DNA of 64,000 nt from Sphingomonadales bacterium (lineage in GTDB: Bacteria > Pseudomonadota > Alphaproteobacteria > Sphingomonadales > Sphingomonadaceae), in the NCBI GenBank assembly GCA_031400695.1, contig JANNQI010000013.1, positions 188 to 64,187 on the forward strand, written 5' to 3'. Shown here in pieces: positions 1 to 37,241 of this stretch (the first letter of the stretch is position 1; every line of letters begins with the position of its first letter). Position numbers and translations under genes: made by a program. Below the pieces are notes generated by a model. The model ran no database searches. It was given only the letters and a program-made list of their open reading frames with translations, and was not told the origin of the DNA.

Positions 1-693
<693 letters not shown>

Positions 694-884: not shown

Positions 885-1343
885 ATGAACAAGTTAATCA
901 AGATTTGTATCTTTGCGTCTGCGGTCGCGAGCGCAAATGTCGCGCACGCACGAAGCTATGTGTTTCAAACGGTCGAAAAAACCAACGAGGCTGTTAGCGG
1001 TGCACGGCCCGATGGCACTGTGTTTGCTGGGCAAATGACGACTGGAACCATCGAAAGCACGTGGCAGGACGGCAAGAAAACGACCGGTACGTACAAATGC
1101 ATGGGTGTCAGCATGCCGCCAAATGACTCGACCTACAGCTTCCGCATTGTTTGCGAAAGCACGGGCGCAGAAGGCAGTAGCTCGACGATTTGGGGATGCA
1201 CCAACCCGGGCAAGGATACCGGAACAGTCCTGTGCACAGGCTGGGCATTTGGCAAGACCGGCATTTATGCGGGCAAACGCGGCACGATGACCTTTGCCGG
1301 TGCTGGCGGAAAAGGCAGCGGAACCGGTAACTGGGATATGTAG
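885..1343 (+). CDS. Secreted hypothetical protein (cassette 1)
   Basis: ATG preceded by aggagaga. N-terminal signal peptide MNKLIKICIFASAVASANVAHA. Mature part is Gly/Thr-rich with several Cys. No family recognised. Confidence 0.7.
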   Translation: MNKLIKICIFASAVASANVAHARSYVFQTVEKTNEAVSGARPDGTVFAGQMTTGTIESTWQDGKKTTGTYKCMGVSMPPNDSTYSFRIVCESTGAEGSSSTIWGCTNPGKDTGTVLCTGWAFGKTGIYAGKRGTMTFAGAGGKGSGTGNWDM

Positions 1344-1584: not shown

Positions 1585-2082
1585 ATGACCGCTTATGATT
1601 ACGAGCTCATGTTCAACCTCTCTTTGGTGATTGGCCATGCTGACCATCGAACGGAGACTAGTGGCTTTCCTGACAGTGGTAAAACCTCGACTGTCTTGAG
1701 GGCGGCATTTGTCACATGGTTGGTCGCATGTGAGGAAGCTCGCGCGCAAATTCGAACCAACGATCCAAAGGCTAGCTTTGTAAGACATGTAATTGAATTT
1801 TTGCCTGACGATGACGATCCAGCTTGGGAGCAAACAAACTCGGTGGGGTTTCATGCTTCACTGAAAAATAGAATGCGGGCTCTCTGGGGTATACGGATTG
1901 CCTTTACGCATTCAGATGGCGATATTTTAAAGATTGGAAGTTCTAATAACAGAGAATGGGCGGGATTTGCGCATTTATATGTCAAAGGTGTTACGATGAA
2001 CGAAGACATAATTGACATGTCGCAAGCTGACTTGCACTATATTCATCGGAGCTTTGCTCAACTTCAGACGGTTCTGGTTTAG
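1585..2082 (+). CDS. Hypothetical cytoplasmic protein (cassette 2, AT-rich)
   Basis: 165-aa ORF. Composition is visibly AT-richer than the flanks. No recognisable motifs. Confidence 0.55.
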   Translation: MTAYDYELMFNLSLVIGHADHRTETSGFPDSGKTSTVLRAAFVTWLVACEEARAQIRTNDPKASFVRHVIEFLPDDDDPAWEQTNSVGFHASLKNRMRALWGIRIAFTHSDGDILKIGSSNNREWAGFAHLYVKGVTMNEDIIDMSQADLHYIHRSFAQLQTVLV

Positions 2083-2736: not shown

Positions 2737-3444
2737 ATGGCACTAAAGGACGATCTAACCAACTCGGTCAAAGGCATTTTGGGCAAAACCTTCAAAGAGC
2801 GGGATGGGCAGAAAATCCCGACCTCTGAAGATATCTCGCTTACCGATGGAGCGGTTAAGCTTGATGCTGCATTTCTTTACGCAGACCTTGCTGGCTCTGG
2901 CATGATTGCAAAGCAATGCCCTTGGGATACCACAGCCAAAATTATACGTGCCTATTTGGACTGTGCCACGCGCATTATACGCGCGCACGGAGGAGAAATT
3001 CGCAGCTTTGACGGTGACAGGGTGATGGGTGTGTTCATTGGAGAGGCAAAAAGGACCAATGCTGTAAAATCGGCAATGAAAATACAGTGGGCAACCGAGC
3101 ACATAATTGAACCAGAAGCTAAATCGAGATTTAACTCGGTAAAGAACAATGATGTCAAAATAAAGCAGGCCTGCGGTGTCGATGTTGGTATAAGCAGAGC
3201 CGTCCGCGCTGGTATCCGAAATAACAATGACATTATTTGGATTGGCCGCCCACCAAGCTTTGCAGCCAAACTCTCGGATAATCGTGAATACCCTTATTGT
3301 ACTTTTATTTCCGAGGCCGTTTATAAGAACATGGCAGACGAAACTAAATTTGCGAACGGCAACAGCATGTGGGAAAGCCGCGCAACAAATTTCGCTGGCG
3401 TCAATGAAACCTGTTACCGCTCCAATTATTGGTGGAAACCATGA
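2737..3444 (+). CDS. Stand-alone class III nucleotidyl cyclase (PycC-like; product nucleotide unknown)
   Basis: Cyclase catalytic-core motifs are present: AFLYADLAGSG and HGGEIRSFDGDRVMGVF (the two metal-binding Asp), then GVDVGISRAVRAGI...IWIGRPPSFAAKLS. There is no sensor or regulatory domain. 235 aa. Confidence 0.8.
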   Translation: MALKDDLTNSVKGILGKTFKERDGQKIPTSEDISLTDGAVKLDAAFLYADLAGSGMIAKQCPWDTTAKIIRAYLDCATRIIRAHGGEIRSFDGDRVMGVFIGEAKRTNAVKSAMKIQWATEHIIEPEAKSRFNSVKNNDVKIKQACGVDVGISRAVRAGIRNNNDIIWIGRPPSFAAKLSDNREYPYCTFISEAVYKNMADETKFANGNSMWESRATNFAGVNETCYRSNYWWKP

Positions 3445-3474
3445 GGCATTCAAAGGTTGCCGTGGCAGTTCACT

Positions 3475-3595
3475 AATTCTCCGGCACCAACATCTCCACC
3501 AGCCGCCGCAGTTCTCCCGCTGTCGTTGCCCCACGACTACCTCATGACAGCCGATACCCGCCCCCGCGCAGCGTGGGCCTTTCACCGCGTCCCTT
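3475..3595 (-). repeat. DUF2726 3'-end-derived repeat R1 (decayed, frameshifted)
   Basis: Minus-strand reading gives RDAVKGPRCAGAGIGCHEVVVG, then in another frame ATTAGELRRLVEMLVPEN*. Compare the intact gene tail at 4162-4290. Confidence 0.75.
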
Positions 3596-3626
3596 AAATT
3601 CCGGGGACAGTAGGTTACTCAGACGC

Positions 3627-4136
3627 TCACCCCAACCGCGCCAACGCTTCATCCAGCGCCTGCAAAAACCGTGACCGGTCGGCTTTGGCAAAGGGTGCGG
3701 GGCCTCCGGTGATGCCGTCCATTCCGGCGCGCAGGTCGGCCATGATCGCGCGCGTGGCGACGGCGCCGCCGATGGAGGCGCTGGTGAACAGCTTGCCGTT
3801 GTTGCCGATCACCACCGCGCCAGCCTTCAGGCACCGGTCCGCCAGCAATATGTCCGCGGTGATCACCACGCTGCGCTTGTCCGCTTGCTCCGCGATCCAG
3901 TCATCGGCGGCGTCGAATCTGTCCGACACGACGACCCGCGTGATCAATGGATGGTCGGGCATACGAAAGCGCGCATTGCTGACCAGCACCACGGGCACAT
4001 TGCGGCGCCAGGCGACCTTGTAAATCTCCTCCTTCACCGGACACGCATCGGCATCGACCAATATGCGGGGCGACGGGGTGCGCAGCGAGAGGGGAGGCGA
4101 TTTATGAGGCAGGGGATCGGGGCTGTCGGAAGTCAT
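3627..4136 (-). CDS. YaiI/YqxD family protein (DUF188, PIN-like fold)
   Basis: ILVDADACPVKEEIY...VVLVSN...DAADDWI...VITADILLADRC...GAVVIGNNGKLF is the typical UPF0178 pattern. Confidence 0.8.
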   Translation of the reverse strand: MTSDSPDPLPHKSPPLSLRTPSPRILVDADACPVKEEIYKVAWRRNVPVVLVSNARFRMPDHPLITRVVVSDRFDAADDWIAEQADKRSVVITADILLADRCLKAGAVVIGNNGKLFTSASIGGAVATRAIMADLRAGMDGITGGPAPFAKADRSRFLQALDEALARLG

Positions 4137-4161
4137 ATTCAGTTCGGGGCTTTATACCGAT

Positions 4162-4800
4162 TTAGCCCCCCGGCACCAACTTCTCCACCAGCCGCTTCAA
4201 CTCGCTCGGCGTCGTGTGCCCTGCCACTACCTCATGATAACCAATGCCCGCCGTGCGCAGCGCTTCCTTCTTCACTGCGTCCCTTGCCGCCGCCGTGCCT
4301 TGATGGTGGCCGCTGCCCTGATATTCGATTGCGTGGACCACGCGCGCGTCGGGGTCCATTAGCGCAAAGTCGACGCGCTTTGAATTGATGCATCCAAAAG
4401 CGGCCGTGTCGCGGCTTGTCAGAAACTCGCCCAATGACACCTGCGCCATCACCTGCCAGCCGGGGTTACGCGCGATGACGGCGGCGTCGAGCGCCTTGAA
4501 AAGATTGACCTCGCGCCGGTTGAGCAGGGCGCGCGCGCTGAAATCGGCGGCCATCACGCAGGCGAGCTGATCGGTCGCGCTGCCATTGGCCTTCGCCGCC
4601 TCGGCCAGCCCGTCTTTCTTTAGCGGAACAAATTTGCCGCCTTTCTTGCCTGAATTACGCCCCTGCCAATAGGCTCTGCGCTCGGCCCGCTTCTGCCCCT
4701 CGACCAGCCGCTCCACAGTAATGCCCAAAACCGCACCCACCGCCAACACTGCGATGAGCACCAAAGGCCTGTCAATCAGCGCAAGAAGTTCGGGCGGCAT
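4162..4800 (-). CDS. Membrane-anchored DUF2726 (endonuclease-like fold) protein, the only intact copy
   Basis: N-terminal TM LVLIAVLAVGAVLGITV. C-terminal domain ...RVDFALMDPDARVVHAIEYQGSGHHQGTAAARDAVKKEALRTAGIGYHEVVAG... Confidence 0.75.
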   Translation of the reverse strand: MPPELLALIDRPLVLIAVLAVGAVLGITVERLVEGQKRAERRAYWQGRNSGKKGGKFVPLKKDGLAEAAKANGSATDQLACVMAADFSARALLNRREVNLFKALDAAVIARNPGWQVMAQVSLGEFLTSRDTAAFGCINSKRVDFALMDPDARVVHAIEYQGSGHHQGTAAARDAVKKEALRTAGIGYHEVVAGHTTPSELKRLVEKLVPGG

Positions 4801-4834
4801 AATGCCGATATGCTATGGGATGCTCAACAAATCG

Positions 4835-4960
4835 TCAACGCCGCCCCGCGACCACCTGATGACAGCCGATGCCCGCACGCAGCGCTTCCTTCTTCACCGC
4901 GTCCCGCGCCGCCGCTGTGCCTTGATGGTGGCCGTTGCCCTGATATTCGATTGCGTGCAT
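4835..4960 (-). repeat. DUF2726 3'-end-derived repeat R3 (5'-truncated copy, 41-codon remnant ORF)
   Basis: Minus strand reads MHAIEYQGNGHHQGTAAARDAVKKEALRAGIGCHQVVAGRR*. It begins 4 nt after the stop of the upstream gene 4965-5537. Confidence 0.8.
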
Positions 4961-4964
4961 TCTA

Positions 4965-5537
4965 TCACCCGCCAAGCGGCATTGTCAGAGTGAGCGCGGC
5001 GCTCAACACCAGCGCCAGTGGCACCAGCACGGCGTGGACTCGCCGCGATGGCACCATGGCCAGCACGCCCGCTACGACGAGGCCAAGCCAGAAGTCGCGC
5101 ATCGAAACGATCACCGGCCAGCTTATCCCGGGCTTTATCACGCCCGCTGCGATCAGGAGCGCATAGAGCGCCACAAAGCTGGTCCAGATGTACCGCTTGC
5201 GCGCTTCGTAATGCGCCGCGAGATCAACATTCTTGCGCGCCGCAGGTTCGGGCAATACTGCGCGCGCGGTCAGGTATAAAGCGACCAGTTGCGCGAGGAT
5301 CAGCACGAACTGCCAAAGCTGCACGTCGGGGCCGGTCGAGCGCAGCGTGCGCCACGACGTCCACCATCCGGCAACGATGTTGAGCGTCACGAATGCCGCG
5401 ACCGACAGCAACAGCCAGTCCCAGCGCACCTGTCGGCGCGCCACGATCAAATGGTGCAGGTTGGATATCAGCGTCGAGATCGCCAAGCCGGAAATGATCG
5501 CCAGCAGGCCGAGAACATATCCGCCTTGGTCCGTCAT
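4965..5537 (-). CDS. Polytopic membrane protein, unknown function
   Basis: 190-aa ORF with about 5-6 hydrophobic helices (LGLLAIISGLAISTLI, LLLSVAAFVTLNIVAGWW, FVLILAQLVALYL ...). Confidence 0.65.
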   Translation of the reverse strand: MTDQGGYVLGLLAIISGLAISTLISNLHHLIVARRQVRWDWLLLSVAAFVTLNIVAGWWTSWRTLRSTGPDVQLWQFVLILAQLVALYLTARAVLPEPAARKNVDLAAHYEARKRYIWTSFVALYALLIAAGVIKPGISWPVIVSMRDFWLGLVVAGVLAMVPSRRVHAVLVPLALVLSAALTLTMPLGG

Positions 5538-5625
5538 TTTCCCCCCATTCAGCTATGACCGATGCCACCGATATTCAGGTTATCACGGGAATCCCAGGGG
5601 TGCTATATAGATTACTCACTCACCC

Positions 5626-5800
5626 TCAGGCACCAACTTCTCTCGTCTCCGCCGCAGCTCTCCCGCTGTTATGTGCCCCGCGCTGCATGATAGCCGATGC
5701 CCGCCTTGCGCAGTGCTTCCTTCTTCACCGCGTCGCGCGCGGCGGCGGCGGCGGGACTCGCTGCCCTTGCCTTACCTGCCCATATCGTTACCGTGATTTC
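5626..5800 (-). repeat. DUF2726 3'-end-derived repeat R4 (decayed, frameshifted)
   Basis: Minus strand reads ...AAAAARDAVKKEALRKAGIGYH, then after a shifted frame ITAGELRRRREKLVPEGE*. Confidence 0.75.
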
Positions 5801-5879
5801 CTGGTCGTCGATGCCGCGTTCATATTTGCTGCGCAGGCGGTGGGGCGGACATCGATGCTGGCATAGGGGAGGCACCGAA

Positions 5880-6428
5880 ATGACACTCGAACAGCTCAGC
5901 CTGATCGCTCAAATCCTCAGCGTGCTGCTGATCCCGGCTTCGCTGATCTTTGTCGGCATGCAGATGCGCCAGACCCATGCAATCGAGCGGGCCAACGCGC
6001 AGCGGCACGTGCTTTCGCAATGGCAGGATTGGATGAACTCGCTGGCGCAAAATGCCGAAGCCTTCGCCGACGTGCGGGATTGCCTGCATGACTATGCCGG
6101 GCAAAAAGAATTCAAGCGGCATCGGTTTTTTGCCTGGGCCTTTGAAAGCCTGTGGATCGCCGAGCAGACTCTTTATCAATGGAACGAAGGGCTGATCAAC
6201 GAGAAGCCGTTCCTCGGTTCGATCAATGCTGTTATGGCGATCATCGTGACGCCCGGCGGGCAGCAATGGTGGGTCGATGCCCAAAAGCTGGTCGGCGGTG
6301 ACATCCGGGATTACCTCGCCGAGCGGCTGGCCGGGAACGCTATCGACTTACCGCAGCAATGGCAGGACCTGGCAACGCATTTCCGGCTGCCTGAGACCGA
6401 TGGAGCAACACCGCCGCCGATGCCATAA
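5880..6428 (+). CDS. Hypothetical protein with N-terminal TM anchor
   Basis: ATG at 5880 follows aggggagg. N-terminus MTLEQLSLIAQILSVLLIPASLIFVGM. The upstream part of the 243-aa track ORF lies in repeat R4 and is not considered coding. Confidence 0.6.
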   Translation: MTLEQLSLIAQILSVLLIPASLIFVGMQMRQTHAIERANAQRHVLSQWQDWMNSLAQNAEAFADVRDCLHDYAGQKEFKRHRFFAWAFESLWIAEQTLYQWNEGLINEKPFLGSINAVMAIIVTPGGQQWWVDAQKLVGGDIRDYLAERLAGNAIDLPQQWQDLATHFRLPETDGATPPPMP

Positions 6429-6467
6429 TGTGGTGAGATAACCGTCATAGTGCGCTCATTGGCCGCC

Positions 6468-6600
6468 CCTTCAGGCACCAACTGCTCCACCAGCCGCCGC
6501 AACTCTCCCGCTGTTATCTGCCCCGCGACCACCTCATGAGTGCCGATGCCCGCCCCCACGCAGCGCTTCCGTCTTCACCGCGTGACGCGCGGCGGCGGCG
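6468..6600 (-). repeat. DUF2726 3'-end-derived repeat R5 (decayed)
   Basis: Minus strand reads AAARHAVKTEALRGGG / GIGTHEVVAGQITAGELRRLVEQLVPEG, with a frameshift between the two parts. Confidence 0.75.
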
Positions 6601-7387
6601 CTGCCGCAGAGGGTGTGGCCGCCGCGCCAACCGCGCGGCGATGCAAATGCCAGGTTGCATGGCCCAGTACCGGCAACACAACAAACAATCCGGCGAACAG
6701 CGGGAGCATGGCGAGGATCAAAGTAACCGCGATCAGCACCGCCCAGGCGATCATGATCGGTTTGTTGGCGCCGAACACGCTCAGGCTAATGATGATCGCG
6801 GTGATGAAATCCACGTCGCGGTCGACCAGCACCGGCAGGCTGACCACCGTGATCGCAAACAGCGCCAGCGCGAACAGCCCGCCGACCACACCGCCAACGC
6901 CCAGCATTAGCAATGCATCAGCCGAAAGCAGCAAAGCCCCGGATTCCGAACCGATCCCGCTGTCCCCCAGAAAGATCGCGAAAATGCCGTGGGCCAGGAT
7001 CATCCAGAAACTGAAGGCCACAAAGATGATGCCGCCCATCATCAACAATTGCTCGTCGCCCCGGCCCTTGAGCGCGCCGAGCACCGCGCCCCATCGCATC
7101 GGTTCGCCTGCTTCGCGCCGCCGGCTGACTTCAAACAGCCCGACGGCGGAAAAGGGCGCCAACAGGGGAAATCCCGCCATCAGCGGGATCAGCCACCAGC
7201 CCTGGCCGACGCGCGACAGGCCGTAAAGAAGGGTCAGGCCTCCGGCGACATAAAAGGCGGCAAAGAACAGGCCGAACAACGGGTAAGCGGCAAAGTCCCG
7301 CCATCCGGCGGCAACAGCGGAACTCAGGTCCCGCAGGGTCAAATCCCGTGCGAGACTGACCTGTGCCAAGGGCGAAGAAACGCTCAC
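6575..7387 (-). CDS. DUF2189-like integral membrane protein (start uncertain: GTG 7387 or ATG 7459)
   Basis: LRDLSSAVAAGWRDFAAYPLFGLFFAAFYVAGG..., multiple TM helices, and a C-terminal GHATWHLHRR. The first 24 codons of the 294-aa ORF lie in repeat R6. The last roughly 10 codons run into R5. Confidence 0.7.
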   Translation of the reverse strand: MSVSSPLAQVSLARDLTLRDLSSAVAAGWRDFAAYPLFGLFFAAFYVAGGLTLLYGLSRVGQGWWLIPLMAGFPLLAPFSAVGLFEVSRRREAGEPMRWGAVLGALKGRGDEQLLMMGGIIFVAFSFWMILAHGIFAIFLGDSGIGSESGALLLSADALLMLGVGGVVGGLFALALFAITVVSLPVLVDRDVDFITAIIISLSVFGANKPIMIAWAVLIAVTLILAMLPLFAGLFVVLPVLGHATWHLHRRAVGAAATPSAAAPPPRVTR

Positions 7388-7411
7388 GATGTGAAGTCTG
7401 CCGCAAAGCGG

Positions 7412-7475
7412 CGACCGATGCAACCGCGCCCAATCGCCACGCTGCGATTCCTTCTTCACCGCCGCCTCAACGACA
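7412..7475 (-). repeat. DUF2726 3'-end-derived repeat R6 (short, decayed)
   Basis: gcggtgaagaaggaatcgcagcgtggcgattgggcgcggttgcatcggtcgcc aligns with the AVKKEALR..GIGYH coding segment of 4162-4800. Confidence 0.55.
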
Positions 7476-7591
7476 TAATGACGTTAGGAAATGCGACGTT
7501 AGCGTGCTACACTCGCATCGGGTCGCGGAGGTGTCGTGTGTCAGTGCTTGTGCAAACAAGCGGCAGGCGGCACGCATTGGAGAGGACCTAT

Positions 7592-7963
7592 ATGAAAAAA
7601 CTGCTCTTGATCGCGGCCTTGCTGCTGCCCGGCCCCGCTATGGCCAACACGCTCGACGTTATTACCTCGAAACTGAAGGACGGTTGCACGTTCGGAACCT
7701 ATCTCGGCATCACCCGGGAGTTCAACGAAAGTTGGGGCAAGGCCAATGGGTATAATGCCCAACTGATGCTGCCCGTCCATAGCTCCGATTCGAGAATGGT
7801 TGTCTGGGTCGGTAACACGGCTTCGGCACAAGCGTTCGGCAAGGCGTGGGACGTGTGGCGCAATGCGATGGCCAATCCCAATTCGGTCGAGGCAAAATTG
7901 CAGGCGCGTTTCGATGCCTGCAGCACGCAAATCTCGCGGGCGAGTTACGACACCTATCAATAA
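7592..7963 (+). CDS. Small secreted hypothetical protein
   Basis: ATG at 7592 follows ggagagga. Signal peptide MKKLLLIAALLLPGPAMA. Only the last 123 codons of the 324-aa track ORF are considered real. Confidence 0.65.
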   Translation: MKKLLLIAALLLPGPAMANTLDVITSKLKDGCTFGTYLGITREFNESWGKANGYNAQLMLPVHSSDSRMVVWVGNTASAQAFGKAWDVWRNAMANPNSVEAKLQARFDACSTQISRASYDTYQ

Positions 7964-8039
7964 TCCGGCGAACGACGGCGGGGCCAGCCTTCGCCGTCTC
8001 GTCTACATGCGCCGAATACCGGGGAGCGGTTCGAAAAAT

Positions 8040-8417
8040 TTAACCCGCTTTCCCCATCCGCCGCCAGCCCCACAGGCTGAGCGCCAGCATCGCTGCATTC
8101 GCACCGAAATCCAGCGCCATCCAGCGATTGAGTATCGGCACTTCGTAGACGAACCAGTAATTGAACCAGAAAAAGGGCAGCAGCGCGATTGCGTAGACAA
8201 GGAAGGTCTTGGCGGTCCACTGGCTGAACCAGATGAACAGCCCGCCCAGCACCGCCTGCGCGCCGAAACAGCCGATCATCAGCGCACTCGTCGCGCTCAG
8301 ATGCTGATAGGCGGGGGTGAACATCAGCCGCTCGACCATGTGCGGTGCGATCAGGCACCAACCGCCGAGGACCAGATAGGGGAGCGCGATAAGGCGTTGC
8401 AGGAGCAGAGGCGTCAT
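8040..8417 (-). CDS. Small polytopic membrane protein (start ATG 8417 or TTG 8435)
   Basis: Four hydrophobic segments (LIALPYLVLGGWCLIAP, ALMIGCFGAQAVLGGLFIWF, FLVYAIALLPFFWFNYWF, AAMLALSLWGW). Confidence 0.6.
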   Translation of the reverse strand: MTPLLLQRLIALPYLVLGGWCLIAPHMVERLMFTPAYQHLSATSALMIGCFGAQAVLGGLFIWFSQWTAKTFLVYAIALLPFFWFNYWFVYEVPILNRWMALDFGANAAMLALSLWGWRRMGKAG

Positions 8418-8473
8418 GGCGCTAACATAACGCAAGCCGGCAGGACCCGCAGTATGCGGCGGCAGTGGACCAT

Positions 8474-8543
8474 TTCCCCGGCATCAACTTTTCCAAGCCG
8501 CCGCAGCAGCCCTCCCGCTGTTCTGTGCACCGCTACCACCAAC
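8474..8543 (-). repeat. DUF2726 3'-end-derived repeat R7 (last ~25 codons only)
   Basis: Minus strand reads VVAVHRTAGGLLRRLGKVDAG, compared with VVAGQxTAGELRRLVExLVPG in other copies. It starts directly after the stop of 8545-8916. Confidence 0.65.
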
Positions 8544-8544
8544 C

Positions 8545-8916
8545 CTAGCGCGCGCGCCCGAATCTCTCGGCCACAACCGCCAGCGCCAGCGACACCGCGA
8601 TTACCGTCACCCCAAGCGGGACCGACGCCGATTTGCTATAGGCCAAGACCCATCCCCAGTTGATGATCGACGCCACAGCGCAGGTCCACAATACCGGCCG
8701 CGCCCAGCCTTTCAGCAGCGCGAGACCGATGCTGCCGATTACGCCCGAAAATACCGCGATGGCAAACGCTGCGGTCACCCAGGACGGCATGATCTCGCTG
8801 CCCTCCGGCACCGCTTCTGCGCCCAGAACGCCGACATGCGCCAGATAGGCCTGCACGCCGACCAGATTGAACAATGCCCCGACCGCGCCGATGGCCCTCA
8901 CCAATTTACTGTTCAT
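8545..8916 (-). CDS. Small polytopic membrane protein
   Basis: ATG at 8916 follows gggaggg. N-terminus MNSKLVRAIGAVGALFNLVGVQAYL..., with four hydrophobic helices. Confidence 0.6.
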   Translation of the reverse strand: MNSKLVRAIGAVGALFNLVGVQAYLAHVGVLGAEAVPEGSEIMPSWVTAAFAIAVFSGVIGSIGLALLKGWARPVLWTCAVASIINWGWVLAYSKSASVPLGVTVIAVSLALAVVAERFGRAR

Positions 8917-9165
8917 TGTCTCACCCTCCCATGGTTCGAGCCGACAATATATCATCGTTTTGCGCCATCGTGAACAAAAGCCTTTCCTACAATGTTCTGT
9001 AGATGCCTGGGTGGCGGAATGACACATGACCCGCCAAGCTCCCTCGATTCCGCCTTGCGCGACGAACGCGTCCCGCGCGTTTTGACTTAAAGCGACAAAG
9101 GATACAGTTTTGGTACCTGCGGCGGTATCGTTTGAATCTTTAAGCCGTGTTTGGAAGCGAAATAT

Positions 9166-9507
9166 ATGAACGAACAGATCTTCAAAGCCACCATCATCGC
9201 CGCCGCAGCGGTATTCACCGCATTGTTCGCCTACTGGTGCATACCGCCCTTAATCGCCAATCCCGACATCATCGGGGCGCTCGCCGCCGGGTTCGTCAAT
9301 CCTTATTCCAGCGGCTATTCCGCCGATGTTCTGGCGTGCTGGGTCATATTGTCGGCGTGGATTGTCTATGAGCGCCGCACGCTTGGTGTCCGGCATGGGC
9401 TTTGGTGCATCGCGCTCGGTGCCATTCCCGGCGTTGCTGTGGGCTTTGCCGCTTATCTGTTGCTACGCGGTCGGCAGTTGCGCATTAAGAAGGAAATTGT
9501 AGTGTAA
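9166..9507 (+). CDS. Small membrane protein (DUF2834-like)
   Basis: MNEQIFKATIIAAAAVFTALFAYWCIPPLI... with 4 TM helices. The family assignment is from memory only. Confidence 0.55.
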   Translation: MNEQIFKATIIAAAAVFTALFAYWCIPPLIANPDIIGALAAGFVNPYSSGYSADVLACWVILSAWIVYERRTLGVRHGLWCIALGAIPGVAVGFAAYLLLRGRQLRIKKEIVV

Positions 9508-9541: not shown

Positions 9542-11044
9542 ATGCAACGACTGACCAAGGCGTTCGTGCTCGCCGCCATCGCATTCGCGACCACTGCCGT
9601 GCATGCGCAAGACGCGCCGCAGCCCGATGTCGCCACCGCCGAAGCCGTCCGCCTGATTGATGCCTGGGCCGATGCAGCGCAGGCTTATGGCCGCTGGCCT
9701 GCGCTTTCCATCGCCATCGGGGTCGGTGACAGGCAAGTCTGGTCGAGCGGCTACGGCTATCTCGACGCCGCGCGCAAAATTCCCGCCGATGGCAAGACGA
9801 TTTATTCGATCTGCTCCATCTCCAAGTTGTTCACATCGGTCGCGGTGATGCAGCAATGGGAGGCGGGCAAGTTGCGCCTCGACGAGCCCATCACCACCTA
9901 TTTGCCGTGGGCGAAGCTCCAGCCCGACGGCCGCGATTCGGTTCCGGTCACCTTGCGCGCCTTGCTCAGCCATTCCGCAGGCGTGCCGCGTGATGGGCGC
10001 ACCGGATACTGGACTGGACCCGATTTTCCGTTCCCGGGCCAAGACGAACTCAAGGCCGATTATGCCAGCGCCAACCCGCTCTATCCGGTCGGCCGCGTCT
10101 ACCAATATAGCAATATCGGCCTGACACTTGCGGGGAATGCGGCGGTCGCGGTTTCGGGGCAGAAGTTCGAAACGCTGGTGCAAGAGAACGTGCTCACTCC
10201 GCTTGGCTTGAGCGATACGCGCCCCACTTTCCCGATCGACCAGCTCGGCAAACGGCTTGCGGTCGGCTGGGGTCCGCTCGACCGCGACGGGCAGCGCAAG
10301 CAGCTGAAACCGTTCGATACCAAGGCCATCGTGCCTGCCGCCGGTTTTTCCAGCACTGCAGAGGATCTGGTGAAGTTCGGACTATGGCAGGTCAACCTGT
10401 TGAAACAAGAAACCGTGCCGGTGACCCCCGGCGTCCTGCGCCCGAGCACCTTACGCGAAATGCAGCGGGTTCAGTTCAGCGACGACGTGCGCAAGGGCAG
10501 TTTCGGGCTCGGCTTCGTGGTCGAGAAGGAAGGCGGCAAGACCTATGTCGGGCATGATGGCAGTTGCCCGGGATATAAAAGCGTTCTGCTCGTACGGTCC
10601 GACAGCGAAACCGTGGTCTCGGCATTGACTACAGACAGCGACTCGATCTGGAACGCGGGCGTACAGATCCACAAATTGCTCGACGCGCGCCGTGGCCATG
10701 CGTTCATGGGCACGCCGCCAGCAATCATTCCGCTCGAGGATTATTCCGGGCGTTATCTCGACAATGTCTGGACCAACGAGACGGTGATTTTGCCTTGGAA
10801 CGGCGGCCTCGTGATGCTCGATTTGCCGACCAGCCGTCCGTCCGATAATCTCAGTTTCCTCAAACCGTTCGCTCCTGACCGTTTCCGCGCGATCGCCGAC
10901 GATGGCAGCGAAATGCACGAAGTGACCTTCCGGCGCGATGCTACAGGCAAAGTGCTTTCTTATGAATATCACCACAACCGCACCGACCGCGTAAGCGGAC
11001 CCGCCGCCGAAGACCGCCGCAAGGCAGGCGCAAAAATAAGATGA
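9542..11044 (+). CDS. Beta-lactamase-related serine hydrolase (secreted)
   Basis: Signal peptide, then the S-x-x-K motif in YSICSISKLFTSVAVM. 500 aa. Confidence 0.8.
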   Translation: MQRLTKAFVLAAIAFATTAVHAQDAPQPDVATAEAVRLIDAWADAAQAYGRWPALSIAIGVGDRQVWSSGYGYLDAARKIPADGKTIYSICSISKLFTSVAVMQQWEAGKLRLDEPITTYLPWAKLQPDGRDSVPVTLRALLSHSAGVPRDGRTGYWTGPDFPFPGQDELKADYASANPLYPVGRVYQYSNIGLTLAGNAAVAVSGQKFETLVQENVLTPLGLSDTRPTFPIDQLGKRLAVGWGPLDRDGQRKQLKPFDTKAIVPAAGFSSTAEDLVKFGLWQVNLLKQETVPVTPGVLRPSTLREMQRVQFSDDVRKGSFGLGFVVEKEGGKTYVGHDGSCPGYKSVLLVRSDSETVVSALTTDSDSIWNAGVQIHKLLDARRGHAFMGTPPAIIPLEDYSGRYLDNVWTNETVILPWNGGLVMLDLPTSRPSDNLSFLKPFAPDRFRAIADDGSEMHEVTFRRDATGKVLSYEYHHNRTDRVSGPAAEDRRKAGAKIR

Positions 11045-35699: not shown

Positions 35700-35838
35700 G
35701 GAAGTTCTCCCATGCCCAATCTGGCAGAAATTCAAACTGTAAGCAAAGTATGTTGCCTAAACGGCCTCAATTACCCGTTCGGCCAAAACCGTAAGGCCCT
35801 TTTCGTTCGGCTTGACAACAAACCTGTTCCATATCCAA

Positions 35839-36408
35839 TCAAGTGAGCAGGGGAAACGCCACTGCGCCTGCAGGCGTGGCCCAGTTCTTGACCAGTTCGG
35901 CAACCATCGCGTTGGTGCTGGTCAGATAGACCCCGGCATTTTCCATGCGCCGCCATGACATCTCTTCGGCAATCGCATTGCCTGAACCGCAAGCATCGCA
36001 AACTACTTTCACGTTAAAGCCTTCCAATACCGCGCTAATCGCAGGGCCAACCATGCAAACGTCGGTCGTGACTCCCGCCATTACAAGGTTGCGCTTGCCA
36101 GTGGCACGGCAGGCTTCCGCAAAGGCGGGATCGTCCCACGCGTTCACCACGCCCTGCCGCTGAATGCGGGACGCAAAAGCTTCACGAGCGATCTCCTGCA
36201 ATTCCGGCATCAGCGGGCCTTGGACGTTGATATTGGTTTCCTGGCTGGAGGTGAGCACCAGCGGGATGCCAGTACCGACCGCAAATTTCGCAAGAATGAT
36301 GACGTTCCGCTGCAACAGTTCGAGCGGCGTCGTCGCAGCCCAAGTGTTTGTGCCAACCTGATGGTCGATCAACACCATCGCGCAATCGTCGAGTTTGAAA
36401 TCCTGCAT
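35839..36408 (-). CDS. Isochorismatase-family cysteine hydrolase
   Basis: MVLIDHQ... and GVTTDVCMV catalytic Cys. ATG follows gggagg. Confidence 0.85.
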   Translation of the reverse strand: MQDFKLDDCAMVLIDHQVGTNTWAATTPLELLQRNVIILAKFAVGTGIPLVLTSSQETNINVQGPLMPELQEIAREAFASRIQRQGVVNAWDDPAFAEACRATGKRNLVMAGVTTDVCMVGPAISAVLEGFNVKVVCDACGSGNAIAEEMSWRRMENAGVYLTSTNAMVAELVKNWATPAGAVAFPLLT

Positions 36409-36486
36409 ATCGAGCCTCCCATGATTCAAATAGTTGCCGATTCGATCCTACTCAGCTAATAGACAGTATCTAACCATTATGACAAT

Positions 36487-36978
36487 ATGTTGTCAAATAG
36501 GATTTGCGACTTGGTTTACACCGGACACAGCAGCAAAGGCGCGGCGCTGACGAAGCTTATACTCGCGAGTTTTCCCTTTCACGGCGCGTTGATGGCGGCT
36601 GGTGAGCGGCTCACCGCTCTGTCAGGCCTGACCTCGGCGCGCTGGCAGGTGCTTAGTGTCATCGCGCGCGCCGAACGGCCTGAGACAGTGGCAAATATCG
36701 CGCGGAATATGGGCTTAACCCGGCAAGCGGTGCAGCGCGTGGCGAACGATCTGGCGGCAACAGGGCTGGTCGCGTTTGCGCCCAATCCGCATCACAAACG
36801 GGCGGTGCTTGTCATGCTGACGGCAACAGGCCAAGCCCGCTTTCAGGAAATGAGCGAGCGTCAGGTGCCCTGGGCCAACGCGCTCGCCGACCATTTGAAC
36901 AAAACTCATGTGGATGCTGCTGCTTGCGTGCTAGGCGAGCTTGCCAAACTGTTCGAGCATCGCGTGGGTGAACCCTAG
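36487..36978 (+). CDS. MarR-family transcriptional regulator
   Basis: ARWQVLSVI...[26 protein letters not shown] winged-helix region. Confidence 0.8.
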
Positions 36979-37241
36979 ACCGCTTCAACCACCCGTTCGG
37001 CCAGCACCGTAAGGCCCTTTTCATTGACCTCGGCAAAACCGCCCGCGATGGACAGCTTTTCGGGCACCGCGCCTTGCGTGGCGTAGATGTCGAGCGTTGC
37101 ATCGCTGCGCAGCGTGCTCATCATCGGACTGTGGCCCTCAAGCACGCCGAAGTCGCCCTCGGTGCCCGGGACGACGACCATATAGACGTCGTCCGAGCGG
37201 TAGAGCTTTTCCGGGGTTACGAGTTCGAAGTGCAATGCCAT
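36975..37241 (-). CDS. atpC: F0F1 ATP synthase subunit epsilon (short form)
   Basis: [13 protein letters not shown]...[20 protein letters not shown]. Confidence 0.9.

Follow-up and report, generated by a model that had tools for sequence, protein, structure and literature searches.

Scars of gene 3′ ends in the variable thiC–DUF2726 interval of a Sphingorhabdus-like genome and their probable origin by integrase-free recombination

A variable interval between two conserved genes

A pattern termed 'insertion with long target duplication' has been described previously (PMC2853133), and a cycle of circle formation has been proposed for restriction-modification units that are flanked by long direct repeats (PMC2853133). 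The locus analyzed here, part of a 64-kb window (the whole stretch of DNA under analysis) from a Sphingorhabdus-like organism, matches the former pattern, with the difference that it is stacked into an array, and homology-facilitated illegitimate recombination would be expected to produce such a pattern as well. The sequence-only reading of this DNA had stated that no described mechanism produces this layout, which given the match was too strong.

DUF2726 and thiC are convergent core-gene neighbours across Sphingomonadales, and the interval between them can be as short as 81 nt (L060) or hold over 10 kb of unrelated cargo, in which defence and toxin-antitoxin families abound (Fic, GmrSD, TIR, DarT1-associated NADAR). 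The first 9 kb of the window form a hypervariable recombination hotspot, bordered by the conserved genes thiC at one end and DUF2726 (together with yaiI) and DUF2834 at the opposite end. The conserved right-hand flank is the 3′ part of thiC (7–690, plus strand; tblastn synteny in 50 of 80 related loci), followed by a terminator-like hairpin at 703–730. Downstream of thiC we also observed two copies of its 3′ end that the sequence-only reading had missed, both on the plus strand: 1455–1557 (nhmmer E 6e-20; BLASTN 77% identity to 610–691) and 2137–2205 (nhmmer E 7e-7; BLASTN 77% identity to 613–689). The left-hand array flank is a DUF2834 gene (9151–9507, plus strand; Pfam 2.8e-16). The intact DUF2726 gene lies at 4162–4800 on the minus strand, as had been read from the sequence (212 aa; Pfam DUF2726 E 8.5e-23), and encodes a membrane-anchored protein with a PD-(D/E)XK-type domain. 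It is preceded by a sigma-70-like promoter (TTGACG, 17 nt, TAGCAT; 4810–4838, minus strand), the upstream edge of which is where homology to the window stops in all relatives. The gene yaiI (DUF188; 3627–4136, minus strand; Pfam 9e-43, NCBIfam 1e-46) varies in position, being downstream of DUF2726 in the window and upstream in other genera.

We searched the whole window with the DUF2726 gene by BLASTN and TBLASTN, and an nhmmer profile built from 80 orthologous DUF2726 3′ ends was run as a second search. All three found same-strand partial copies confined to the first 9 kb, which are copies of the last 60–190 nt of the gene. At least six such fragments had been claimed, and similarity beyond chance was borne out for five of them by BLASTN/TBLASTN, with E-values from 5e-30 to 1e-4: R1 (3474–3595; gene nt about 508–631; E 2e-18), R3 (4843–4960; an internal piece, gene nt 466–583; E 5e-30), R4 (5622–5771; E 2e-18), R5 (6465–6619; E 7e-22) and R7 (8475–8540; gene nt about 553–633; E 1e-4 with BLASTN, 6e-4 with nhmmer), all on the minus strand. 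R6, placed earlier at 7412–7475, is DUF2726-like only over 7437–7465 (minus strand; gene nt about 518–545), the left stump of a split fragment; on its own this match is marginal (E 0.04–0.3; nhmmer E 0.04), and synteny lends it support, since L089, L008 and L002 carry a full fragment in the same place beside the same neighbour gene. R8 (9029–9080, minus strand), a possible decayed left stump picked out by eye without statistical support, was missed by every search (BLASTN, TBLASTN, nhmmer); two short matching blocks and a left flank weakly resembling that of a full fragment in L007 are suggestive only of a fragment remnant.

As had been proposed, the repeats punctuate units of one or two genes. 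On the thiC side, the cargo comprises a 152-aa secreted-looking protein (885–1343, plus strand; ORF list), which has no tblastn match in the 80 loci and is unique to the window genome among those, a 165-aa ORF (1585–2082, plus strand) at the start of a low-GC (45–48%) stretch, and a Pycsar anti-phage pair (2200–3444, plus strand; PycTM 2200–2733, cyclase PycC 2737–3444) of 45–48% GC, recognized by PADLOC (2TM effector 1.1e-80, PycC 1.5e-93), in a slot bounded by the second thiC fragment and R1. R1 follows yaiI after a gap of 33 nt, and the yaiI–R1 unit is also found in L001 and L081. Beyond the DUF2726 gene, R3 starts 4 nt past the stop codon of a 190-aa membrane protein gene of a rare family (4965–5537, minus strand; 22 homologues found), and R4 sits 85 nt upstream of this gene. 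A 183-aa protein with an N-terminal hydrophobic segment is encoded in the opposite orientation (5877–6428, plus strand). The ORF of a DUF2189 membrane protein (6575–7459, minus strand; Pfam 1.8e-31; annotated start approximate) begins in R6 and ends in R5. The genes of a 123-aa secreted protein (7592–7963, plus strand), common to L002, L007, L008, L089 and L090, and of a 131-aa membrane protein (8040–8435, minus strand) form with a fragment a unit shared by the window and L007. R7 abuts or overlaps the stop codon of a 123-aa membrane protein gene (8545–8916, minus strand), and the identical gene–fragment joint is found in L004; the sequence that precedes this gene has homology to the sequence that precedes the DUF2726 promoter in L006, L008 and L009.

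Sequence and edges of the fragments

The fragments derive from coding sequence and carry frameshifts, as had been noticed before: R1, R4 and R5 are each matched in two reading frames. That fragments resemble each other more than the intact copy applies to these three (R5–R1 82%, R5–R4 80%, against 74–79% to the DUF2726 gene) but fails for R3, whose identity to the gene is 86%. Window fragments are closer to intact alleles of other lineages (0.81–0.91) than to the window's own gene (0.73–0.87). A fragment in L070 is 97–99% identical to the gene of another species (L073) and 84% to the gene beside it, and the homology between L070 and L073 ends at the stop codon. Judged from these alleles, the fragments do not appear to be target-site duplications.

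These identities also bear on local gene-family decay, in which tandem full paralogues of DUF2726 would have decayed to 3′ ends in all but one case without horizontal input. Such a history would accommodate L007, where the gene of the 123-aa secreted protein lies directly upstream of the intact gene's promoter, while elsewhere this gene is followed by a fragment; this contrast is compatible with a full copy that lost its promoter and 5′ part. In the window, L002 and L089 the promoter is also immediately preceded by fragments. However, DUF2726 is intact and single-copy in all 80 related loci compared, a second intact copy being absent from every genome, the fragments are nearer to foreign alleles than to the resident gene, and close relatives differ in unit content. 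Moreover, decay leaves unexplained the scars of thiC and atpC and the lack of 5′ pieces: at all loci only the 3′ part of the gene is repeated, with no 5′ piece surviving in the 80 loci. Hence, the suggestion of decayed local paralogues did not hold up, and we regard it as improbable.

The same kind of scar occurs at other genes. The atpC 3′ end is repeated 30 kb away (35756–35807 versus 36974–37025), yaiI scars are present in L003, L017 and L025, and in L011 3′-end scars of a 150-aa membrane protein gene flank DUF2726–yaiI itself. L008 contains head-to-head joints of thiC and DUF2726 fragments, two of them identical, which would be expected if incoming DNA had spanned a whole donor island and ended inside its far flank.

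A dedicated integron-like or integrase-driven system, in which the DUF2726 3′ repeat is the attachment site of a recombinase that is encoded elsewhere in the genome and inserts and excises the units, would account for the cassette-like layout of short, mostly co-oriented units each ending in a related repeat, and for the presence of one unit at an unrelated locus: the 190-aa gene and its upstream fragment recur in L083–L088, where neither flanking repeats nor an anchor are found. Two further features point in this direction. At least four units that have different neighbours begin at gene nt 508–518, at the foot of a 7-bp hairpin (in a tally of 5′ starts, about 5 of 21 units fall into one 10-nt bin versus about 1.5 expected); breaks or crossovers might be favoured at this mild cluster. 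Fragments of different genomes also have derived, non-functional states in common (GCGTGGGG replacing GCGCAAGG, GGCACT replacing GGCTAT) and therefore propagate as a family, which fits hitch-hiking and gene conversion but would also fit a recognised site. In addition, several cargo stop codons lie 0–5 nt from the next fragment. This spacing is tighter than random joining predicts; like the unit at the unrelated locus, the cluster of 5′ starts and the shared derived states, it counts against the explanation that we favour below.

The fragments themselves, in contrast to what such a system predicts, do not fold (z about 0, range −1.7 to +0.8, both strands) and have neither a conserved core nor a fixed crossover. 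Most share a constant 3′ edge at the stop codon, while their 5′ starts spread from profile position 18 to 140, and left joints at about nt 545 and 583, and at about nt 555 in the unconfirmed R8, indicate no fixed site. Between near-identical strains conservation is lowest in the repeats, and the unrelated 3′ ends of thiC, yaiI, atpC and the L011 gene are scarred alike. The absence of a recombinase from the array, claimed earlier, was upheld: Pfam detects no recombinase domain in any cargo protein of the window, no tyrosine or serine recombinase is found among the 25 commonest of 45 families (62 cargo ORFs, about 50 genomes), and none adjoins the array in the window or in mapped relatives. With no hairpin, no constant crossover and no recurrent recombinase, the earlier likening to a cassette array is disfavoured, and an integrase-driven system seems to us quite doubtful.

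Retention of the fragments as promoters, terminators or RNA elements of neighbouring genes would explain why they remain next to genes whose proteins have drifted apart to 58% identity (the 123-aa membrane protein unit, window versus L004) and why deletions trimmed the DNA between cargo stops and fragments while the fragments were kept. This is nevertheless hardly likely at all, as we found no promoter- or terminator-like site inside the fragments except for a single weak promoter-like match across the R3 start (4988–4959), fewer terminator-like sites in the array region than in shuffles, no secondary structure, and a variable spacing to the next start codon (25, 40 and 85 nt); the fragments also change fastest between strains and carry internal deletions.

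Joints and turnover among relatives

Related genomes differ in units at repeat boundaries, the kind of difference that the sequence-only reading had proposed to look for by comparing the locus between strains. The cargo of the strain-level relative L081 is 98–99% identical to that of the window (98.9% for the 183-aa gene), while R4 is 85.7%, R3 88.6% and R5 57% identical, the last with an internal deletion. Since the fragments diverge far more than the cargo between near-identical strains, recombination and gene conversion inside the fragments are indicated.

New modules lie inside older fragments and have one homologous and one illegitimate joint, the latter status being judged by comparison with species-level relatives. 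The DUF2189 module interrupts a fragment that L089, L008 and L002 have in one piece; the left stump of this fragment stops at gene nt about 545, and the right copy reaches further in the 5′ direction than the target fragment did. Hence, the incoming DNA carried its own fragment, and R5 came in along with the DUF2189 module. R3 is joined directly to the DUF2726 promoter at gene nt 583 with 3–5 nt of microhomology, in what appears to be an illegitimate joint. L081 lacks 4336–4844 and has one continuous, uninterrupted fragment instead. In L081, L089 and L008 a DUF2726 gene end, a displaced native one, is still attached to yaiI; L089 and L008 have the intact gene upstream of inserted cargo, in L008 with DUF2834 directly upstream of it.

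A true long target-site duplication, in which a widely staggered double-strand break in the gene 3′ end is filled in to yield identical copies that then diverge, is formally the pattern of PMC2853133, and the duplication terminates close to the stop codon, which is what selection to keep the gene intact would demand. Against it, the copies are 74–88% identical when flanking cargo is 98–99% identical between strains, a foreign allele is almost identical to the fragment in L070, so that two copies appear to have differed already at insertion, and the right copy at the DUF2189 insertion exceeds the target fragment. We thus consider this origin highly unlikely.

In a RecA-driven cycle of circular cassettes, adjacent fragments would recombine homologously to release a unit, made up of cargo and one fragment, as a circle, which any DUF2726 3′ sequence of the same or another cell could take up again through a single crossover. 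Every unit is indeed flanked by direct repeats (60–190 nt), the difference between the window and L081 is exactly the segment between two 118-nt repeats, and the head-to-head joints of L008, two of which are the same, have the topology of a closed circle. A single crossover would, however, leave the left copy complete at its 3′ end, whereas R6, R3 and R8 lack this end and are followed directly by the incoming module. In L081 the fragment resembles R3 throughout the repeat, so that the exchange point coincides with the illegitimate joint instead of falling within the homology, and repeats of only 74–88% identity are poor RecA substrates. Such a cycle is therefore unlikely.

Accretion by homology-anchored illegitimate recombination

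We favour the explanation, with a probability of roughly 0.6, that the fragments are scars of repeated insertion of foreign segments between two conserved genes, through integrase-free accretion by homology-anchored illegitimate recombination. In the pathway that we infer, DNA of a related lineage would enter and recombine homologously at one end in conserved sequence, the anchor, while the other end would reach only a little way into a conserved gene, with too little length or similarity to support another homologous crossover, and be joined illegitimately beside or within the resident copy. One event would add cargo and a 50–190-nt gene-end piece. This geometry would leave only 3′ ends, with a 3′ edge always at the stop codon and a variable 5′ edge. 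The fragments may then become anchors and targets of later events and swap sequence through gene conversion. Recombination between the gene orders DUF2726–yaiI and yaiI–DUF2726 could yield second gene copies that are later trimmed by deletion.

The order of events in the window may have been that the array grew downstream of an intact DUF2726 gene next to DUF2834, that the DUF2189 and 123-aa membrane protein modules were inserted inside older fragments, that a promoter and DUF2726 segment was re-inserted at the fragment adjacent to yaiI, and that the original left-hand DUF2726 copy was lost. The DUF2726 array is thus most likely the product of ordinary recombination and not a set of sites of a dedicated cassette machine.

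Repeated gene ends in the window

The entire 64-kb window was searched by BLASTN and TBLASTN with the intact DUF2726 gene as query and by nhmmer with a 3′-end profile of 80 DUF2726 orthologues. It contains a single intact DUF2726 gene (4162-4800, minus strand, 212 aa, Pfam E 8.5e-23), and the partial copies on the same strand are confined to the first 9 kb. These minus-strand fragments are R3 (4843-4960, gene nt 466-583, E 5e-30), R5 (6465-6619, E 7e-22), R1 (3474-3595, E 2e-18), R4 (5622-5771, E 2e-18), R7 (8475-8540, E 1e-4 and 6e-4) and R6 (7437-7465, E 0.04-0.3 alone), and a self-comparison of the 64 kb revealed no further copies of the repeat. E values of 1e-18 to 1e-30 over the whole window, together with zero copies beyond the locus, rule out a low-complexity artefact, and the copies are significantly similar, as the sequence-only reading had held. 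R6 is secured by synteny: we accept it as real because L089, L008 and L002, related loci in other genomes, hold a complete fragment at the matching point beside the matching neighbour gene, but the wider extent first assigned to it did not stand, since the DUF2726-like stretch covers 7437-7465 only. R8 (9029-9080), put forward as a weaker further copy, was undetected in every search and is suggestive at most. The described layout, with R3 starting 4 nt past a stop codon, R7 abutting a stop codon and R1 following yaiI (the DUF188 gene at 3627-4136, minus strand), was found to be correct, and so was the cassette-like arrangement of the units. The DUF2189 ORF as called (6575-7459, minus strand) has a GTG start within R6 and its stop within R5, so that its terminal codons come from fragment sequence; its true start is uncertain. 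Comparison of the DUF2726 protein with PDB sequences gave no meaningful match, exact-protein look-ups of the DUF2726 protein, the 183-aa cargo protein and AtpC returned no record, and the DUF2726 literature held nothing bearing on the gene-end repeat pattern.

The scar is not specific to DUF2726, since the 3′ ends of thiC and atpC are also repeated. The last ~100 nt of thiC (native end 598-690, plus strand) recur twice further downstream in the orientation of thiC itself, at 1455-1557 and 2137-2205, a single cargo gene separating each copy from the next; these repeats had been missed when those of DUF2726 were first described. Between the second thiC fragment and R1 the GC content is low (45-48%), and this slot carries a complete Pycsar anti-phage system (2200-3444, plus strand), in which PycTM precedes PycC (scores of 1.1e-80 for the 2TM effector and 1.5e-93 for the cyclase PycC). 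atpC is intact at 36978-37241 (minus strand), and its 3′ end (36974-37025) is repeated with 85% identity as a 52-nt copy at 35756-35807. This copy comprises the last ~17 codons and lies beyond a 1.2-kb insert with a MarR-type regulator (36487-36978, plus strand) and an isochorismatase-like gene (35839-36429, minus strand). The atpC locus thus shows the order intact gene, cargo, 3′ fragment at a place unrelated to the DUF2726 locus. A further example comes from the related locus L011, where an intact gene for a 150-aa membrane protein (5356-5808) lies upstream of DUF2726-yaiI, and 221 nt of its 3′ end recur downstream (7635-7855, 91% identical). Being flanked by a gene and its 3′ copy, the DUF2726-yaiI pair behaves like inserted cargo there. 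The original observation of repeated gene ends is therefore confirmed and extends to further genes and genomes (thiC, atpC, yaiI and the L011 gene).

The DUF2726-thiC interval in related genomes

In a scan of relatives, limited to one genome per species, the window falls into a Sphingorhabdus-like clade of the Sphingomonadales, and its DUF2726 protein is 91% identical to that of a Sphingorhabdus MAG and 54-90% identical to those across the order. Every locus compared contains exactly one intact DUF2726 copy, with thiC as its convergent neighbour throughout. The two stop codons lie from 81 nt (L060) to >10 kb apart, and the content of the interval is unrelated between genomes. L060, from Qipengyuania xiapuensis, is with its stop codons 81 nt apart effectively an empty hotspot site. 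Pfam searches of 62 interval ORFs of at least 180 aa from ~50 genomes returned Fic (3), GmrSD (2), TIR (2), DarT1-associated NADAR and RelA_SpoT, among others. yaiI lies downstream or upstream of DUF2726 depending on the genome. Constant flanking genes with unrelated content in each genome are the pattern of a minimal mobile element or hotspot, and the locus is a classical example of a hotspot lying between conserved genes.

Partial copies of DUF2726, thiC and yaiI are present in the close relatives L001-L004, L007, L008, L014, L089 and L081 and in some more distant genomes, e.g. L017, L025 and L070. Their number and position vary from genome to genome as does the interval content, in agreement with the turnover that the sequence-only reading had proposed to look for by comparing strains. 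The DUF2726 pieces are 3′ parts of the gene without exception; most reach the stop codon, a few are truncated stumps (R3, R6), and no piece of the first 450 nt was found in any locus compared. The 3′ edge is constant at the stop codon, and the 5′ edge is spread over positions 18 to 140 of the 3′-end profile. In L089 and L008 the intact DUF2726 gene stands upstream of the cargo and fragments, and in both, as in L081, a strain-level relative of the window, the last fragment keeps the native 25-nt spacer to yaiI. L008 also contains three head-to-head joints of a thiC fragment with a DUF2726 fragment, two of which share joint sequence (~78% identity by eye), which argues that such joints are inherited or copied as units. 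L004 shows the nested order gene, cargo, DUF2726 fragment, thiC fragment, cargo, thiC.

Several further features of these loci were recorded. The region 10640-20240 of L008 is a 10-kb array between DUF2726 and yaiI with defence-type cargo, including one ORF whose N-terminal sequence looks TIR-like and one that is GIY-YIG-like. Both ends (1-309 and 2274-2597) of the 2.6-kb L007 contig are copies of the gene for a 123-aa secreted protein (91% over 264 nt), reflecting either a real local duplication in the vicinity of DUF2726 or a tandem repeat at which the assembly broke off. A metagenome scan with a fragment-type 21-mer gave one true match, L099, arranged as L002; the remaining matches were dismissed as chance hits of GC-rich sequence. 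In L083-L088 (L083 ~9863-10586), the 190-aa membrane-protein gene known from the window cargo has a decayed DUF2726 fragment 77 nt upstream, and homology of this module to the window stops exactly at the stop codon. It lies between a gene for a secreted 295-aa protein and a phosphodiesterase gene, a context unrelated to thiC/DUF2726, and no flanking repeats were found around it in L083. In L009 and L006, GAAC-N7-GAAC, the alphaproteobacterial form of the LexA box, followed by TGTAGGAAAGG, stands ~100 nt upstream of the DUF2726 start, above the promoter. The window has the TGTAGGAAAGG region upstream of the 123-aa membrane-protein gene instead (~8960-8995) with no intact box, and no LexA box was found near the array.

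Foreign fragments, nested modules and their joints

The sequence-only reading had noted that the fragments encode TAGELRRLVE and the window's intact gene TPSELKRLVE, and had derived the copies from once-coding paralogues because of their synonymous codon differences. TAGELRRLVE is also encoded by the intact genes of close relatives, TPSELKRLVE recurs in the gene end attached to yaiI in L081, and each window fragment is nearer to another lineage's intact gene (0.81-0.91) than to the window's own (0.73-0.87). With fragments nearer to foreign alleles and one intact copy per locus, a local paralogue origin was not borne out. A foreign origin is clearest in L070 (Erythrobacter sp. SD-21), where a fragment with a 35-nt internal insertion (10468-10629) lies 50 nt after the intact gene. 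This fragment is 97-99% identical to the gene of L073 (Qipengyuania huizhouensis) and 84% identical to its own adjacent gene, and the near-identity of the L070 fragment to the L073 gene stops exactly at the stop codon. Since the fragments match foreign alleles better, the two copies were already different alleles when the repeats formed. A true target-site duplication, in which both copies would stem from one sequence, is rejected because of this allele distribution, the L070 case and the extension of R5 beyond its target fragment.

The latter is seen at one of three window modules that sit within older fragments. In L089, L008 and L002, one unbroken fragment stands after the gene for the 123-aa secreted protein. 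The window counterpart is cut after GCTGCGTGG, leaving R6 as a left stump reaching to gene nt ~545, followed by the DUF2189 module and then R5. R5 starts at nt ~490 and thus further 5′ than the target fragment (nt ~518), which indicates that the incoming DNA carried its own fragment. Judged from the sequence, the right side of the DUF2189 module is homologous and its left side a non-homologous joint. At the second module, R3 runs straight into the promoter of the intact gene, the two sharing 3-5 nt (GGC/GGGC) where they meet, and beyond this joint homology resumes in the gene end and yaiI. In L081, where window positions 4336-4844 are missing, a single unbroken fragment (nt 466-639) leads into yaiI; as it resembles R3 as far as nt 583 and the gene thereafter, the exchange point is the joint itself. 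R8 and R7, finally, look like the halves of the L007 fragment preceding the 131-aa gene, split by the 123-aa membrane-protein module. The left joints at nt ~545, 555 and 583 have no common position. With the parents deduced from relatives, these products have one junction in homology and another that is non-homologous with at most a few nt of microhomology, as known from homology-facilitated illegitimate recombination.

We also considered whether the fragments might act through a structure or a recognition site. Five copies (R1, R4, R5, R7 and the gene end) showed no fold signal on either strand (z -1.7 to +0.8 against dinucleotide shuffles), and a promoter and terminator scan found no terminator-like site within fragments. 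The sole promoter-like match touching a fragment is a weak one at the start of R3 (4988-4959), and the 45 nt conserved upstream of intact DUF2726 are its sigma-70-like promoter. Folding and scan hence gave no support to an attC-like element, a terminator or an RNA structure, which we reject. A MITE or REP-type repeat is rejected for the lack of structure and because within 64 kb the copies occur at this locus only. A dif/Xer-type site was discarded on reading the sequence, as the fragments are GC-rich and the AT-rich XerD arm is absent. Comparison with L081, which is a 3-kb metagenome contig, shows cargo genes and spacers to be 92-99% identical to the window, and the fragments R4 85.7%, R3 88.6% and R5 57% with a 54-nt internal deletion. 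As they diverge more than the cargo, the fragments are the least stable parts of the locus. Repeats that often recombine or undergo gene conversion with one another would be expected to show such instability, whereas a conserved recognition site would show the opposite.

No recombinase domain was detected in any protein between 885 and 9507 by Pfam, NCBIfam and PADLOC, so that the earlier statement that the array lacks a recombinase holds for all window cargo. Neither tyrosine nor serine recombinases were among the 25 commonest of the 45 Pfam families of the 62 ORFs from ~50 genomes; two IS-type rve transposases were among the interval families. Plasmid-borne cassettes were likewise rejected as a source, as distant BLASTN of 3400-9200 against PLSDB matched only chromid DUF2726 and DUF2189 orthologues.

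From these data we infer that the process is probably homology-facilitated illegitimate recombination, and the dedicated or otherwise unexplained cassette mechanism considered initially is unsupported. Incoming DNA from a related lineage would recombine homologously at one of its ends in conserved sequence, which may belong to a flank gene or to a fragment already present. At its other end it would reach only a short way into a conserved gene, with too little or too diverged sequence to allow a second crossover, and this end would be joined illegitimately nearby. The exclusive 3′ polarity would follow from the entry of incoming DNA into the gene from the island side. Such a mechanism would explain why the fragments share a fixed edge at the stop codon and extend in the 5′ direction by a variable but always small distance, why they are of foreign allele type, how truncated stumps and head-to-head joints came about, and why no machinery is present. 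That the 3′ end is merely the most conserved segment is rejected as the cause of the bias, since its mean pairwise identity (0.82-0.85) is no higher than that of nt 277-396. Where lineages differ in gene order (DUF2726-yaiI versus yaiI-DUF2726), a purely homologous exchange between them would add entire second gene copies, which deletion would trim later. The arrangement of L007, where the 123-aa secreted-protein gene directly precedes the promoter of the intact gene at a place where other genomes have a fragment, fits this route. For the window itself, the simplest history would comprise four steps in no set order: growth of an array downstream of a DUF2726 gene placed beside DUF2834, as that gene is in L008; nested insertions; re-insertion of a promoter-plus-gene segment at the yaiI-attached fragment; and loss of the original left-hand gene copy.

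Relation to known systems and meaning of the array

Insertion with long target duplication comprises inserts of <20 kb without a mobility gene between direct repeats of >30 bp, which align to a single copy in insert-free genomes and may overlap a gene 3′ end, and the cargo often consists of defence genes (Nobusato et al. 2000; Furuta, Abe and Kobayashi 2010; PMC2853133). The present locus agrees with this operational definition in insert size, repeats, a single copy in empty genomes and the lack of a mobility gene: DUF2726 and yaiI are adjacent in L005, L006, L009, L011 and L012, and L089 and L008 have the order DUF2726, cargo, fragment, yaiI; atpC supplies another case elsewhere in the window. 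The DUF2726 locus differs in that the events recur at one gene end and form an array six or seven deep, involve both of the convergent flanking genes and re-use fragments as insertion points. The copies are, moreover, strongly diverged and one is demonstrably foreign, so that a literal target duplication does not apply.

Homology-facilitated illegitimate recombination, reportedly described in 2002 by de Vries and Wackernagel and by Prudhomme et al. (both among the references of PMC2884548), has been seen in laboratory transformation of Acinetobacter, Pseudomonas stutzeri and pneumococcus. Its combination of one homologous anchor and one microhomology joint is found at R6|DUF2189...R5 and at R3|promoter...gene end-yaiI, whereas here the process is deduced from natural sequence only. 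We know of no stacked arrays of anchor remnants. In the minimal mobile elements of Neisseria and in flexible genomic islands or integration hotspots, cassettes without own machinery are swapped via flank homology, and as there, strains differ in the cassettes between the same conserved flanks. Exchange in those systems is mostly scarless replacement, whereas here it is additive, leaves partial flank copies and thereby concatenates several alternative cassettes.

ICE/IME/CIME arrays and tycheposon islands consist of integrase-borne elements stacked at gene or tRNA 3′ ends, and they resemble the array in that partial target 3′ ends separate the cargo blocks and decayed units lack a recombinase. 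However, their repeat extent is fixed by att and at least some units carry a tyrosine recombinase, neither of which is seen here; 5′ starts between profile positions 18 and 140 and left joints at nt ~545, 555 and 583 do not define a single crossover position. The array shares with integrons its single-gene, mostly co-oriented units, the related repeat after each and the many small proteins of unknown function, but has no intI, attC hairpin or core sites, and its repeat stems from coding sequence and is unstable between strains. There is no intI next to an attI at the array, which is flanked by thiC and DUF2834 as in relatives, and reading the fragment sequences revealed no GTTRRRY/RYYYAAC core-site pair. 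The array is neither an integron nor an integrase accretion array.

Some observations fit homology-facilitated illegitimate recombination poorly. Several cargo stop codons lie 0-5 nt from the next fragment, and at least four units that differ in their left neighbours have 5′ starts clustered at gene nt 508-518 (~5/21 units within a 10-nt bin in our own tally), which could be a break hotspot or chance. Fragments of different genomes share derived non-functional states, e.g. GCGTGGGG replacing GCGCAAGG, and the 190-aa-gene module with its upstream fragment also occurs at an unrelated locus without flanking repeats. The 5′ cluster lies at the foot of a 7-bp hairpin, CGCAGTG...CGCTGCG (gene nt 508-535, window ~4266-4293). 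The tight stops, 5′ clustering, shared states and unrelated-locus module leave a small probability for a preferred break or crossover site. That the DUF2726 3′ repeat is a genuine recombination site with such a position at nt ~508-518, served by an enzyme acting in trans (an unrecognised recombinase or the membrane-anchored DUF2726 nuclease itself), appears to us very improbable. To our knowledge, integrons are absent from Alphaproteobacteria; if this reading were true, Sphingorhabdus-like bacteria would own an integron-analogous cassette capture without an integrase gene.

Defence and niche genes accumulate in hotspots between conserved genes, and their machinery-free entry is usually only deduced. 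This locus keeps a readable account of it, with stacked scars, modules nested in older scars, demonstrably foreign fragments and fragments outpacing the cargo in divergence. Stacked, nested and foreign as they are, these gene-end scars document integrase-free accretion at a defence/accessory hotspot with unusual clarity. The order intact gene, cargo, diverged 3′ fragment of the same gene would provide a practical signature by which such hotspots could be recognised in genomes. If homology-facilitated illegitimate recombination is indeed the process, one-sided homologous recombination would add alternative cassettes beyond replacing them, leftover gene ends would become portable homology arms that speed later exchange, and together this would constitute a simple integrase-free route to cassette arrays.
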